DNA of 64,000 nucleotides, from NCBI GenBank assembly GCA_028280345.1, contig JANQLY010000009.1, positions 43,402 through 107,401 on the forward strand, written 5' to 3'. Shown piece by piece: positions 59,214 through 64,000 of this stretch (positions are counted from its first letter, which is position 1; each line of letters starts with the position of its first letter). Position numbers and translations under genes: made by a program. A model generated the notes under the pieces. It ran no database searches, was not told the origin of the DNA, and saw only the letters and a list, made by a program, of their open reading frames with translations. Source of the DNA: Pseudomonadales bacterium (GTDB lineage: Bacteria; Pseudomonadota; Gammaproteobacteria; Pseudomonadales; UBA7239).

Positions 59214-62200
59214 GTGGTGATTATGTCATATGTTAGTGAGTTACAGAAAGAGGAATTTTCTGACGGTACTCATGTAGTAGTTTATAGCACAGAAAATAAT
59301 AGTAGTGCAGTTAGAGATGCCGGAGTTATTAAAGAAATTTTGATTTTTACGGCAAGCTTGCTTGTCCTGTTGCTTTTTTATGGTAATGCAAGAGCGGGTG
59401 ATTTTATTTGCGCAGCGTGTACTACTTACAATTGTCATTACATCTATGATTCTGCTGCGGATGCTTGTGCCATTTATGGTGGGGCTGTCAAAGTAACCGA
59501 TCAACTTTATCGCTGTAAGGACAATACAAACATTGTGGCGAAATGTCAGGGACATTGTGGGGCAGGGCAGTATAGAGATCTTGCGGGAGATATTCAGTGT
59601 GTCAATGTTAATCAGAAGCCGGATTGTGACTCTGCTCAGGGAAATCCCATACTGACCCGTACAGGAGGGAAGCGCCAATGGGAAACAGATTATCGCTATC
59701 ACGGCATTGTACCTGTTTCGATTGAGCGTGTTTACGACTTTCTTGATAGGAAGGGTTATTGGTACTTTGCTTATACTCAACATATTGATAGCGTGCCTTA
59801 CGGAAGCTGGAACGTAATAGATGGTTTCGATTACGGGGGTTACTACACAACGATTGACCGAGCCAATGGTGAACGTTATCTCTACGAGGGATTGGTTGTT
59901 GAAAATGGCAGTCAGTTGTTTACATCACGTGTGCTTTATTCCCAATATCAGTTACAAGTCCATTTTGTAAGTTCTGCAATTAGTGGTTACACTTTGACGC
60001 ATACAGATGGTTCAATAGAAAGCTTTGATGCGAACGGAGTTCTTGTTTCAATTGAAACGCCGGAAGGTTTTCTGGTAACGATTGATACCGGTCAGGATGG
60101 TCAAACCGGGTTGCCAATAAAAATAATTACGGACTCAGTCAGTGGTATCGTGATGATGTACTACTATGATGTATTGGATCGAATCGTCAGTATAGCTGTT
60201 ACGCATTCTTCACCTGTAAATGAGATATTTGAATATCACTATAGCTATGATGATGGCGTTGATGGCAGTGGTTTGCTGGACAAGGTGACTTATCCGGATG
60301 GTTCGACAATCAAGTATCGTTATGGTGAAAACGGTGCGCCAACTAAAGCGTTAACCAGTAAACTGGATGAAGAAGGTAGTGTCTATGCCAGTTGGCAATA
60401 TGACTCGATAAGTGGGCGTGCTATTCACTCTAGTCGTGGCAATGCGTCGCGGCAGATTGACATCACTTATGCTGCGGATCCTGTAAGCGGTTTGATCGAT
60501 AGTGCAATGGTTACCAATGCCGCTGGTAAACAACAGCATCTGCATTTTGCTGACCTTGGTAATAATCGCCGCCGCGTTAGTCGCTCTGAAGGTATGACGC
60601 TAGGGGGATGTGCACCATCAGACAGTTATTTTACCTATGATGATAATGGGTGGAAGGTCACAATAACTGAAGGAGTAGACCTGTTAGCGGACCCGGTTCA
60701 GGAAGGTGTTGTAACTCACTATGTGCGGGATGAGACAGGTTCACCTCATCGCGTAACAGCAAAGATTACCGGCTTGCAATGGGGAGAAGAAAAGCCCTGG
60801 AATATGGCTCAGCCTGATCCGGCTACCTTGCAGCCACTACCGGAAAGTCAAAAAGTTGAGCTCGACTGGCATACCTTGCGTGATCAGGTAATTGAAAAGC
60901 GATTTTTTGCACGTGACGAAAATAACAGCGCCTGGATACATTACAAAACTATTGCCTACGATTATGACGATGGAATCAATCATGATTGTGATAATCGCAA
61001 TAATATTGATGAGGTTGATACCTGGCGGTTGTGTTCGCGGCGAGTGACAGATGTGGTTGACGGGATAACGCGAGAGTGGACTTACACTTATCAACTGAAT
61101 GGGTCGGATGGTGTTGTAAACAGCAGATTAGTGAATGGCCCCGGGCCGGGTAACACAGATTCAACAGTCTATACCTATAATAGTGCAGGGCAGCTCGTGT
61201 CGCGGGAAAATGCGTTATCACATATGACAACATATGGAGAATATAATGGGTTTGGTTTTCCTCGGCATATAACAGACAGTAATGGTGTATTGAACACGCT
61301 GGACTACGATTTGCGTGGGCGTGTTACTTCAATAACTGCGGATAGTGGCAGCGGCGGTGCAAGTACGACCACACAGTTTGCCTGGTATGCCAATGGTTTG
61401 CTCAAGCGAATTGACTGGGCAGATAGTAGTTTCGTTGAGTATTACTATAATGCGGCCCATGAGTTAGTTGGGCTGGAGAATCAGTTTGGCGAATATGTAG
61501 AATTTACACCTTCAGTAATCTCTGAAAACTGGTCATCGCTAAAGATATGCACAGAAAAAACTGGAGCAGGTTGTGACGCCTCAAATGTTATCTTCGAACG
61601 TATACAGGACATTGATGCACTTGGACGTGTGGTCGGTATTCGTGATGCCAATGGCAGCTTGCGTCGAGGTTATGGTTATGACCGCTATAACAATATTACG
61701 ACAAGAGTAGATTATGGTGATGTCGGCAATGCTCCTGATCATGACGATAATAATCTTGTTACATACTTTAGTTATGACGGTCTGCAACGCTTAACCCGTA
61801 TAGCAGGCGCGTTTATTTGTGGCAGTGATTGTGCTGTTGATGCCTATGGAAATCTCGCGTCTGCGGTTCCTCAGACAGCGCCTGAAATACTATATAGCTA
61901 TAGTGTTGAAAACAAAGTAGCCACTCTGACAGATCGTGGTGGCATTGTTACGCACTGGCATTACAACGGATTTGGCGAGGTTGTACGTGAAGATAGCCGT
62001 GACCGTGGCACATTGGTTTATGCTTACGATAGCGCTGGCCAGTTGATTGAGAAGCATCAATATGGATACATAGATGCGGAGTTGGCTCCGTCGGGTACGT
62101 TCCACAAAACCCGCTATGCTTATGACACTCTCGGCCGCCTGACCGCTGTGTATTTTTCAGAAATACCGGGGGAACATGCGGAAGACATTATTTATACCTA

Positions 62201-63143
62201 TGATTTGAATGACGGTGCTCATGGCAAAGGGATTGGCCGACTTACTCGTGTACAAGATCAAAGTGGTATATCGGATTATCACTATGACAGTCTGGGGAGG
62301 GTGTTGACGCAAAGTTTTGACCCGGATGGCGATGCTCCCTTGTCGTTTTCCCAGCATTATACTTATAACGAGGTTGGAGCTTTGACATCTGTCACCCATG
62401 AGCCGGGTAACCATAAATTTAATTATACCTACAGTGAGGGCCGACTAAATACCATTGACTACGGTGCAATGTATGACCTTGTTGTAGATGTTGATTATCG
62501 TCCATTTGGAGGAATTGCTGGATATAGCAATACGATGTATTCGGTGGGTCAGCCTTTGCTGATAACAACGCGTAATTACAACAAAAGTGGTCAATTGATC
62601 AAAAGTAATACTAATTTGCATAACGATGGTGGTTATGACGTTCATTATAACTATGATGCTTACGGCAACATTAGTGAAATTGCTGATGAGTGGGCTGGGA
62701 CTACAGCTGATCAGACTTTCGAGTACGATCCGTTGCGGCGATTGACGAGAGCTACGGGATTATATGGTCAGTATCGCTACAAATATGACAAGGCCGGTAA
62801 TCGTCTGGAGCGTGAACTATACCGAATAGACCCGGCGAACCCGCCTCCAGTTGGGCCTGACTATGGTGACTCAGATACAGAAGTTTTTACTGAGCATTAT
62901 TACTACGATGATGGTACGGCTATGGGTGGTGATACACCGGAAGACTTTATTAGCCATCGATTGTTCACCGTTGAGCGTGATCATGTTGAAACAGGTCTGT
63001 CGTTACGCCGTCGCAGCTTGCACTATGACGAGCAGGGTAATCTCATTGAGGACAAGCGTGAAGACTTATTGCAGTCATCGGAGGTAAAAGTTAAGCCGGT
63101 TTACGGTGATGATAATCGTATCAATAACCTGGATGTGGAATAG
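59214..63143 (+). CDS. RHS/YD-repeat protein, N-terminal part lacking the RHS core and toxin tip
   Basis: Hydrophobic segment ending ARA, Cys-rich region, DUF6531-like GNPI..TG.K...ETD, many YD repeats; ends YGDDNRINNLDVE* with no PGQY/DPxG core. True start uncertain (59214-59340). Confidence 0.88.
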   Translation: MVIMSYVSELQKEEFSDGTHVVVYSTENNSSAVRDAGVIKEILIFTASLLVLLLFYGNARAGDFICAACTTYNCHYIYDSAADACAIYGGAVKVTDQLYRCKDNTNIVAKCQGHCGAGQYRDLAGDIQCVNVNQKPDCDSAQGNPILTRTGGKRQWETDYRYHGIVPVSIERVYDFLDRKGYWYFAYTQHIDSVPYGSWNVIDGFDYGGYYTTIDRANGERYLYEGLVVENGSQLFTSRVLYSQYQLQVHFVSSAISGYTLTHTDGSIESFDANGVLVSIETPEGFLVTIDTGQDGQTGLPIKIITDSVSGIVMMYYYDVLDRIVSIAVTHSSPVNEIFEYHYSYDDGVDGSGLLDKVTYPDGSTIKYRYGENGAPTKALTSKLDEEGSVYASWQYDSISGRAIHSSRGNASRQIDITYAADPVSGLIDSAMVTNAAGKQQHLHFADLGNNRRRVSRSEGMTLGGCAPSDSYFTYDDNGWKVTITEGVDLLADPVQEGVVTHYVRDETGSPHRVTAKITGLQWGEEKPWNMAQPDPATLQPLPESQKVELDWHTLRDQVIEKRFFARDENNSAWIHYKTIAYDYDDGINHDCDNRNNIDEVDTWRLCSRRVTDVVDGITREWTYTYQLNGSDGVVNSRLVNGPGPGNTDSTVYTYNSAGQLVSRENALSHMTTYGEYNGFGFPRHITDSNGVLNTLDYDLRGRVTSITADSGSGGASTTTQFAWYANGLLKRIDWADSSFVEYYYNAAHELVGLENQFGEYVEFTPSVISENWSSLKICTEKTGAGCDASNVIFERIQDIDALGRVVGIRDANGSLRRGYGYDRYNNITTRVDYGDVGNAPDHDDNNLVTYFSYDGLQRLTRIAGAFICGSDCAVDAYGNLASAVPQTAPEILYSYSVENKVATLTDRGGIVTHWHYNGFGEVVREDSRDRGTLVYAYDSAGQLIEKHQYGYIDAELAPSGTFHKTRYAYDTLGRLTAVYFSEIPGEHAEDIIYTYDLNDGAHGKGIGRLTRVQDQSGISDYHYDSLGRVLTQSFDPDGDAPLSFSQHYTYNEVGALTSVTHEPGNHKFNYTYSEGRLNTIDYGAMYDLVVDVDYRPFGGIAGYSNTMYSVGQPLLITTRNYNKSGQLIKSNTNLHNDGGYDVHYNYDAYGNISEIADEWAGTTADQTFEYDPLRRLTRATGLYGQYRYKYDKAGNRLERELYRIDPANPPPVGPDYGDSDTEVFTEHYYYDDGTAMGGDTPEDFISHRLFTVERDHVETGLSLRRRSLHYDEQGNLIEDKREDLLQSSEVKVKPVYGDDNRINNLDVE

Positions 63144-63155
63144 GGGGGAAGAATC

Positions 63156-64000
63156 ATGCAGATTGAAAAATATATTTTAATGGTTCTAGTTATTGCTCTG
63201 TTGCCGGGTTGTAAAATTGATGTGAGCGTCAATGGTGATGGTAGTGTGACTTCTTCTACAGGTAATATTGCTGACTGTAGGGAAGAGAATGCTGGTAGCG
63301 AAGCTTGCCGGCACGAATATGTCACAGTACTGGAAAATTGTGACGGTTATGATGCTTTTGATAGTAACAAAGATGAAGCTCATGAGCTCGATTGCACCGT
63401 TATAGGTAGTGGCGAAGCTGTGGAAGAAGAGCTGGTGGCAACGCCTGATGAAGATAATAGTTTTGACGGTTGGGCGGGAGATTGTAGTGGTGCGAATACT
63501 TGTCGCTACACGATTACTGAGGATGAAGCGGCCGACGATAGCAAAACATGGCAAGTAGAGGCGAGCTTTGAGCCAGAGCCTTTACCGGAGGAGGCAAGTT
63601 ATACTCATAATTACCTGGGCCAGCGTACTAGTAAAACTGTAGGCACGCTCACGACTTACTACATTTATAATCAAAGTGGCCAGTTGGTACGAGAGCATAC
63701 CTCAACAGGAATTAGCCGGGTTTATGTATATATGTATAAGGAGCTGGTGTCTGTTTATGAGGAAAATGATCAGGGATCGCAGAACATCTATTACCCTGTT
63801 AAAGATCACCTGGGACAGCTGCGACAACTACTGGCGATAGGAGAGACACTCAGTAGTGAACGTTATGCAACGCCTTTTGGGCAAACCCATAGTCAATATC
63901 AGGTGGCCAGTCTCAGTGAGCACAATACAAGATTGCCCGGCCAATACTATGATAAGGAAAGTGGTTATCACGAAAATGGTTTTCGCAGTTATGAGCCGGG
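63156..64000 (+). CDS. predicted lipoprotein: InlB-B/Flg_new-like domain fused to the C-terminal YD repeats and RHS-associated core (partial, runs off window)
   Basis: Not in the ORF track; translated by hand: MQIEKYILMVLVIALLPGCKIDVSVNGDGSVTS...ATPDEDNSFDGWAGDCSG...VEASF...SYTHNYLGQRTSK...YIYNQSGQLVRE...DHLG...NTRLPGQYYDKESGYHENGFRSYEP; GGGGGG RBS 5' of ATG 63156. Confidence 0.88.
   Translation, partial: MQIEKYILMVLVIALLPGCKIDVSVNGDGSVTSSTGNIADCREENAGSEACRHEYVTVLENCDGYDAFDSNKDEAHELDCTVIGSGEAVEEELVATPDEDNSFDGWAGDCSGANTCRYTITEDEAADDSKTWQVEASFEPEPLPEEASYTHNYLGQRTSKTVGTLTTYYIYNQSGQLVREHTSTGISRVYVYMYKELVSVYEENDQGSQNIYYPVKDHLGQLRQLLAIGETLSSERYATPFGQTHSQYQVASLSEHNTRLPGQYYDKESGYHENGFRSYEP

Follow-up and report, generated by a model that had tools for sequence, protein, structure and literature searches.

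Gene content of the locus

The window analysed here is a stretch of 64,000 nt from a Pseudomonadales bacterium (assembly GCA_028280345.1, contig JANQLY010000009.1, positions 43,402 to 107,401), whose end, from position 59,214 onwards, carries a split rearrangement hotspot (RHS) system: the YD-repeat shell and the RHS core are encoded by two consecutive open reading frames, ORF1 and ORF2 (Table 1). The genome (G000) is 94% complete, its contigs are labelled here C2 to C20, and the contig of the window is C19.

ORF1 ends at 63143, having 1309 aa when read from GTG 59214 and 1306 aa when read from ATG 59223. The ATG, with the ribosome-binding site AAGGTGG ahead of it, appears to be the likelier start, and the protein database entry for ORF1 (P0168) has 1306 aa. 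The protein has the YD-repeat array of RHS polymorphic toxins, with matches to RHS_repeat (Pfam, E 3.7e-31) and YD_repeat_2x (E 2.8e-24), and it ends ...YDEQGNLIEDK...PVYGDDNRINNLDVE directly before the stop. An earlier reading of this DNA, made from the sequence only, had described ORF1 as a YD protein without RHS core, and the family scan agrees, as Rhs_assc_core (TIGR03696) was not found in it. Besides RHS_repeat, the Pfam scan of ORF1 gave only a weak DUF6531 match (E 0.0027, 18.4 bits, under the cut-off of 24.1), with SpvB and TcdB_mid domains not found; G140 and P142 of the corresponding plug-like motif are invariant in an alignment of six shells. The hydrophobic segment near the N-terminus may be a signal peptide or a signal anchor. 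Ahead of it lies an acidic stretch of ~40 aa (window 59214-59336), unlike the N-termini of five other shells; the start of ORF1 may be mis-called, or the hydrophobic segment may be a signal anchor.

ORF2 is open at its 3' end within the window and was completed by reading the contig beyond the window end, which gives a protein of 456 aa (P0001) from ATG 63156 to window-equivalent 64526. Its N-terminus reads MQIEKYILMVLVIALLPGC(19)K, and six more Cys follow Cys19, as far as residue 116. The domain that contains them matches Flg_new_2 (PF18998) with E 6.7e-4 and 20.0 bits, below the cut-off of 23.6. At residue 148 the YD repeats restart with YTHNYLGQRTSK..., followed by DHLG and RLPGQYYDKESG, and Rhs_assc_core is matched at residues 239-340 (TIGR03696, E 3.9e-12, 46.5 bits vs a cut-off of 32.5), the core closing with ...NPIMRFDVSGL. 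The Cys-rich domain, the resumption of the repeats and the arrival at the core had all been noticed from the letters and were found where the sequence-only reading placed them.

The extension of the contig, which that reading had proposed, yielded the DVSGL motif, a tip of 116 aa and a candidate immunity gene (ORF3); further lipoprotein-core cassettes were found elsewhere in the genome. ORF3 is probably an immunity protein and is probably exported, as its N-terminus suggests. Its nearest Atlas clusters are PliI lysozyme inhibitors, with a score of 0.87 that is under the 0.9 level and makes them a lead only; no usable Atlas match was obtained for the ORF2 tip. The candidate immunity proteins of the pairs on C13, C16 and C9, described below, do not have hydrophobic N-termini of the ORF3 type.

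Table 1. Features of the split RHS locus; coordinates are positions in the window unless a locus (L001) is named
Feature	Coordinates	Strand	Basis or remark
ORF1, predicted exported RHS/YD-repeat shell without core	59223..63143	+	ORF list, ribosome-binding site, RHS_repeat, YD_repeat_2x
ORF1 hydrophobic segment, residues 42-61, ILIFTASLLVLLLFYGNARA	59337..59396	+	read from translation
Possible N-terminal plug motif of the shell, DUF6531-like, ...GNPILTRTGGKRQWETDY...	59640..59750	+	weak
Junction: TAG 63141-63143 and 12-nt spacer with Shine-Dalgarno GGGGGAAG (63144-63151)	63141..63155	+	
ORF2 signal peptide and lipobox-like LLPG-C19 (predicted)	63156..63212	+	
ORF2 residues 20-147, Cys-rich InlB-B-repeat-like (Flg_new_2-like) domain	63213..63596	+	
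ORF2 residues 148-238, last YD hairpins (YTHNYLGQRTSK ... DHLG)	63597..63869	+	
RHS core start, ORF2 residues 239-281 in the window	63870..64000	+	core to residue 340, window-equivalent 64175
ORF2 tip, residues 341-456, 116 aa	L001 7177-7527		beyond window
ORF3, 142 aa, hydrophobic N-terminus, several Cys, overlaps ORF2 stop	L001 7527-7955		beyond window

The junction between the two genes

Between ORF1 and ORF2, which share a reading frame, lies a spacer of 12 nt, gggggaagaatc, in which a Shine-Dalgarno sequence is read, bearing out the earlier claim of a new ORF with its own ribosome-binding site. Shell, core and tip, which in single-chain RHS toxins form one polypeptide, are interrupted here by the stop, the 12-nt spacer and the new start; compared with single-chain relatives, the extra material between the two RHS halves consists of a stop, a Shine-Dalgarno sequence, a start, a signal peptide and a domain of 128 aa.

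The common frame of ORF1 and ORF2, a feature of four of the five pairs of this kind in the genome, would be in keeping with an error of sequencing or assembly, or with a single-chain rhs gene recently broken by a nonsense mutation. Contigs of three runs labelled coral metagenome were aligned to positions 62400-64000; the contig of X1, possibly the source of this DNA, covers the whole region, while those of X2 (63118-63423) and X3 (62913-63151) cover parts of it only, and all three have 0 differences at the junction. These contigs, together with the inserted signal peptide and domain, which single-chain relatives lack, and the recurrence of the layout in pairs whose shells are 32-43% identical, make an error or a nonsense mutation extremely improbable, and this explanation was rejected. 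The misassembly that could have undone the sequence-only reading was not seen, and its argument against a simple nonsense mutation held. Because the layout of a shell followed by a lipoprotein-core repeats at five places in the genome, the split reflects a conserved design, not damage to a gene.

The predicted lipoprotein-core family

A profile of the N-terminal part of ORF2 (A1) was searched against 1.84 billion representatives (E <= 0.001), giving 3255 matches of two kinds: long proteins matched many times, and proteins of 370-531 aa with a single match that spans the entire profile. All four of the long proteins that were scanned contain Flg_new_2 (InlB B-repeat) copies, between 10 and 33 of them, and because A1 retrieves such proteins a distant relationship of the ORF2 N-terminal domain to InlB B-repeats is likely. 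Among 25 proteins fetched from 150 listed representatives, 21 were full-length, having the signal peptide, the Cys, the Cys-rich domain, the YTYN motif, the core and an unrelated tip, and the architecture was found in ~20 metagenomic clusters.

In an alignment of 28 members, the first Cys (Cys19), four Cys of the domain, D290, D336 and G339 are invariant, and L340 is nearly so. The number of Cys from the first one to the YTYN motif is odd in all 28 members (5, 7, 9 or 13), a count in keeping with an exported domain that has one acylated Cys and its other Cys paired in disulfides. Against a strict lipobox pattern of the PROSITE type, [LVI][ASTVI][GAS]C, 22 of the 28 members conform at the Cys picked by script. 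From these features, ORF2 is a probable lipoprotein.

Single-chain forms in which the B-repeat domain is fused to the shell were also sought, and none was found: the search of longer proteins matched only the YD/core half of ORF2. Three fused candidates, L033 and L040 from metagenomes and one from the genome G716, turned out to be ordinary single-chain RHS proteins, the insertion in G716 being a different one.

Recurrence in the genome and in relatives

The same two-gene split, which the sequence-only reading had suggested looking for in other genomes, is present in five paralogous pairs in this genome (C19, C14, C16, C9 and C13) and once in a related genus. The five shells have 1256-1577 aa and their partner lipoprotein-cores 456-531 aa with a lipobox-type Cys; all five junctions consist of a stop, 12-15 nt with a purine-rich Shine-Dalgarno sequence, and then ATG or GTG. 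Pairwise identity is 32-43% among the shells and 43-53% among the small proteins in their conserved parts, and the arrangement has persisted through long divergence, since the shells share so little identity. Rhs_assc_core was absent from all four shells scanned and present in every lipoprotein-core scanned (P0001, the C16 and C13 copies, the G012 protein, P0056 and P0084). In G012, which belongs to the same family and another genus, a shell of 1311 aa overlaps (ATGA) a lipoprotein-core of 1265 aa (L020 4568-8365, G012:C30), the N-terminal domain of which is interrupted by a DUF5122/delta-60 beta-propeller of ~800 aa. This insertion suggests that the N-terminal domain of ORF2 type is a variable, outward-facing module.

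The tips have 115-173 aa and are mutually unrelated among eight paralogues, while the sequence is conserved up to the core. The locus thus has the layout of a hypervariable tip followed by a downstream immunity gene, the immunity role of ORF3 being putative. Conserved accessory or secretion genes were not seen flanking the five loci.

Two further comparisons were set aside. Shell and partner are in the same frame in four of the five pairs (C19, C14, C9 and C13, with gaps of 12 or 15 nt; the gap of C16 is 14 nt), and this was rejected as evidence of readthrough, not being significant by a binomial estimate. The correlation between shell and cartridge identities (r 0.62, 10 pairs) was not counted as co-evolution, the pairs being non-independent.

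The genome also contains classical orphan core-tip fragments without signal peptide, at C10 (94561-97058), C13 (99362-99931) and C6, with another in the genome G001 (L022, G001:C459); of those on C10, on C13 and in G001, some begin within the B-repeat domain, and small candidate immunity genes follow each. The end of the C16 locus (366969-367426), at the contig edge, encodes the N-terminus of a second lipoprotein cartridge, and the start of C6 (20-805) a core-tip fragment; taken together, the two may amount to a second cartridge, in tandem, behind a single shell. In another family, the genome G330 has a cassette (L060, G330:C23:1-2373) very similar to the C6 and C16-end sequences, which may be bin contamination or a recent transfer.

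Such fragments bear on the proposal that ORF2 is an ordinary rhs orphan cassette, a C-terminal fragment displaced from its gene and kept for recombination, and ORF1 a truncated main gene. True core-tip fragments without start or signal do occur here (C10, C13 99931-99362 and C6) and in G001, as that proposal would have it. Unlike such fragments, ORF2 comes with a Shine-Dalgarno sequence, an ATG and a signal peptide of its own, and in addition carries an invariant Cys and one more folded domain; ORF1 is core-less, and five diverged pairs share this junction, so that the orphan-cassette proposal is very unlikely.

A second kind of split was also observed, in which an ordinary signal peptide is followed almost directly by Rhs_assc_core and a tip (294, 329 and 279 aa), at C2 (357657-363955, L068) and C11 (193609-207514, L069), with two such genes in tandem on C11. 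Ahead of these cartridges lie giant secreted proteins of 1492 aa (RHS, cadherin-like) and 3998 aa (FG-GAP, RTX, RHS). Conventional single-chain RHS genes are present too, on C7, C15 and C8.

Outside this genome, the N-terminal domain was found in genomes of one family only (f1: G002, G012 and G001), plus the 2.4-kb contig of G330. Any profile match was obtained in 11 of 41 relatives, 6 of 401 genomes of the order and 6 of 400 of the class, and the matches outside f1 and G330 have the YD part only or part of the profile only. The profile scan of genome contigs gave seven loci, one of them with the N-terminal domain, and that of metagenome contigs gave ten, none with a true N-terminal domain. 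When residues 1000-1309 of ORF1 were searched, the close relatives were only the shells of the same genome, and no other ending of the YGDxNR type was seen in the 22 of 61 matches inspected.

Position of the break and structural models

ORF1 and ORF2 together are collinear with single-chain RHS proteins: ORF1 residues 623-1197 align with residues 459-957 of P0011, and ORF2 residues 147-340 with residues 1016-1179. The break lies between the hairpins ...YGDDNRINNL and ...YTHNYLGQR, corresponding in ordinary RHS proteins to the position between ...Y(G/D)xxNR(L/I/M) and ...YTYNxxGQRxxK, with no repeat visibly missing. On solved Rhs cores the family profile covers no more than the final ~175 residues, its best PDB matches being 8h8a, 7q97 and 8uy4.

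ORF2 was modelled as a monomer with AlphaFold2, together with 27 relatives. The ORF2 model has a mean predicted local distance difference test (pLDDT) score of 69.9, with ~67-96 per 10-residue block in the N-terminal domain, ~84-93 in the hairpins, 33-59 in the core and 33-55 in most of the tip; Foldseek groups it with shells of the Rhs, teneurin and Tc types. The complex was modelled from residues 690-1306 of the shell and residues 20-345 of ORF2, in three runs and with three controls. The interface score ipSAE was 0.89, 0.90 and 0.91 in the three runs and 0.00 in the best of the controls, the mark applied being attained in 58 of 80 solved complexes and in 2 of 110 mismatched pairs. The model has ~300 contacts, at least 93% of them common to the runs, with a partner pLDDT of at least 86; shell residues 1297-1305 contact ORF2 residues 143-153, and the core (283-333) contacts the shell interior. 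As modelled, the complex closes the sheet across the break, and the complementary interface that the sequence-only reading called for is predicted.

Proposed two-gene RHS toxin module

Here it is proposed that the locus is a Sec-exported, two-gene RHS polymorphic toxin module, which we regard as the probable explanation. The gene layout, its conservation, the collinearity with single-chain RHS proteins and the domain content were observed, and lipidation, assembly, cleavage, toxicity and immunity are what these features lead us to infer. The first gene would specify nearly all of the YD shell, as an exported protein whose N-terminal part has a plug-like motif and which lacks a core. The second would encode a small probable lipoprotein comprising an acylated Cys, a disulfide-bonded B-repeat-like domain, the last YD hairpins, the core, which would act as a plug with an aspartyl autoprotease dyad, and the 116-aa tip; the third, overlapping the end of the second, would encode a probable immunity protein of 142 aa. 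After export, the first hairpin of the lipoprotein would pair with the shell's last strand, the core would insert as the closing plug with the tip enclosed, and the tip would be severed after L340. The product would be a cocoon of two chains tethered to the membrane, similar in principle to TcB-TcC; its B-repeat domain would lie outside the shell and might serve in receptor binding. Lipoprotein-core genes that stand alone may supply other cartridges to these shells.

Several observations weigh against this explanation. Three of the eight full-length lipoprotein-core genes (one on C3, two on C20) have no shell upstream, and G002, a genome that is 100% complete in four contigs, has a lipoprotein-core (P0056, L021 5759-7189, G002:C1, minus strand) with no match in that genome to the last 500 aa of the shell or to RHS_repeat at E <= 0.01. 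Because G002 has a lipoprotein-core without detectable shell, the small protein may work alone. The N-terminus of ORF1 is atypical as a signal peptide, its hydrophobic segment standing behind a long acidic stretch, and the five other shells examined have short, ordinary signal-peptide-like N-termini. The lipobox of ORF2, L-P-G-C, deviates from the strict pattern in its Pro at -2. The cleavage motif of ORF2 reads DVSGL, the usual RHS motif being DPxGL; the roles of the two catalytic Asp are known from Tc and Rhs structures. The ORF2 core has an insertion of ~22 aa, common to two paralogues, and neither the ORF2 tip nor ORF3 matches any Pfam or NCBIfam family. A resemblance to the solved cocoons of single-chain Rhs proteins and TcB-TcC, and not binding, may lie behind the high score of the complex, because the two proteins make up the halves of a fold already solved in both one-chain and two-chain form; the modelled shell is limited to residues 690-1306, with a shell alignment of six rows.

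Some of these points are shared with the strongest rival explanation, that the lipoprotein-cores are self-sufficient small toxins, with the hairpins and the core serving only for autoproteolytic release, and that the shell is a separate secreted protein, adjacent to them through shared ancestry or recombination. The three copies without adjacent shell and the G002 protein are as this explanation would predict, and so is the compact architecture of 21 of the 25 proteins fetched from the listed cluster representatives. On the other side, all five core-less shells of this genome, and that of G012, have a lipoprotein-core within 15 nt or overlapping, and a core-less shell has no evident function by itself. 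The core, disordered in the monomer model, is ordered in the predicted complex. The stand-alone C3 and C20 copies are 55-76% identical to the C16 partner and, because of this identity, could use the C16 shell in trans, and the ORF beside P0056 in G002 is IS3-like by eye, so that this copy may be a relic. Self-sufficiency of the small proteins is accordingly judged unlikely, though less so than the other alternatives considered above.

For the two-gene module, the interpretation given in the sequence-only reading is supported, with corrections to two details, and none of the outcomes named there as refuting it was seen. For the lipobox, Cys19 is invariant in all 28 members, with the strict pattern broken in ORF2 by the Pro. 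Of the export signals attributed to both halves, the ORF2 signal peptide stood, and the ORF1 segment may be either a signal peptide or an anchor. The two-chain cage inferred there agrees with the recurrence of the pairs and with the complex model, on which assembly is predicted, while the shell-less copies, three here and one in G002, indicate that the pairing is perhaps not obligatory.

A more far-reaching version, to be taken as a tentative possibility, is that the system is a combinatorial toxin loader working outside the cytoplasm, in which generic Sec-exported shells are closed after export by interchangeable lipoprotein cartridges, composed of B-repeat domain, hairpins, core and toxin, from local or remote loci. 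It requires a cocoon to enclose a toxin from another chain after membrane translocation. If so, one envelope could carry several combinations of cocoon and toxin, from five shells and at least eight cartridges in addition to the signal-peptide-only class of C2 and C11; the variable N-terminal domain would be a targeting module, as with the ~800-aa beta-propeller of G012; and RHS toxins would be delivered independently of type VI secretion systems (T6SS) and of Tc.

If the proposed module is real, it would be a further form of RHS cocoon, besides those of T6SS effectors, Tc toxins, WapA-type wall proteins and teneurins, in which a shell and a lipoprotein plug-toxin subunit are exported separately and have to come together beyond the cytoplasm. 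Two matters would become testable, the closing of a cocoon round the toxin of another chain and the swapping of cartridges without recombination into a 4-kb gene. It also offers a function for proteins of ~370-530 aa that in one database are named only RHS repeat-associated core proteins. The host is coral-associated and has unusually many such modules, which may bear on competition or host interaction there. Literature searches, covering open-access full text and bioRxiv, turned up no account of a Sec-exported shell that is paired with a lipoprotein core subunit.

Comparison with known systems

The sequence-only reading took characterised RHS toxins to be single-chain, which is wrong, as TcB and TcC form one cocoon. 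Work on these toxins, PMC11067744 included, describes the two-chain TcB-TcC cocoon and a TcB-type protein, YenB, that accepts C subunits (YenC1-3) from three loci, one of them an orphan locus. The present system, in its gene layout and model, is similar to TcB-TcC in that two polypeptides would form one RHS cocoon, with the core and a variable toxin on the second chain, and in the fold and profile matches of ORF2 to TccC2/3 and YenC2. It differs in the position of the break, since the RHS part of ORF2 (~195 aa) can be aligned to no more than the final ~110 residues of the 660-690-aa RHS regions of TcC (in profile alignments, TccC2 552-664 and YenC2 601-690), whereas the Tc-type break lies ~660-690 residues before the cleavage site. 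The TcB-type SpvB and TcdB_toxin_mid domains, and the beta-propeller with which TcB docks on TcA, were not found by Pfam in ORF1, and TcA_TcB_BD was not found in the genome in a weak search, in which control genomes gave no match either. Tc subunits assemble in the cytoplasm; here, both chains have predicted export signals, and the second is a probable lipoprotein.

The single-chain Rhs toxins of the T6SS (RhsA, Tse15, RhsP) share with this system the YD shell, the Rhs_assc_core with its Asp dyad and a variable tip followed by an immunity gene, and WapA is a Sec-dependent single-chain Rhs toxin. Unlike in all of these, shell and core lie here on two chains, and the N-termini are predicted signal peptides, unlike the T6SS adaptors of T6SS Rhs effectors. 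PAAR_motif was not found anywhere in the genome, at its completeness of 94%; the T6SS sheath gene TssC is present on C15.

Bacterial teneurin-like proteins (TLPs), some of which are described in sections of PMC13018210 as having predicted Sec/signal peptidase II signals and a predicted lipid anchor and surface display, resemble the pair in being RHS-type shell toxins with small polymorphic C-terminal domains, and ORF2 has PDB matches to 9ifo and 9pt5. The same sections describe TLPs as single polypeptides that combine an FN-plug, an NHL propeller and a TIP domain, none of which Pfam found in this pair, and the lipid anchor here would be on the small core subunit. The rhs orphan cassettes, as presented in parts of PMC3482391, are likewise arrays of core-tip and immunity genes downstream of a main gene, as at C16/C6, C13 and C10. 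They differ from the cartridges of this system, which are complete genes with Shine-Dalgarno sequence, start, signal peptide and an extra domain, behind a main gene without core.

SitA of myxobacteria and MafA/MafB were compared by description only. To our knowledge, neither involves RHS repeats. Both resemble the proposed module, as far as the relevant passages describe them, in being polymorphic toxins that need a lipobox protein for placement in the outer membrane or on the surface (SitA, PMC5562445; MafA/MafB, PMC3482391); in MafA/MafB, according to the latter, the lipobox is on the non-polymorphic partner MafA, whereas in the present system the lipobox-like motif sits on the chain that carries the toxin. 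TcB-TcC is a precedent for RHS cocoons of two chains, and what would be new here is the Sec/lipoprotein export and the different break point.

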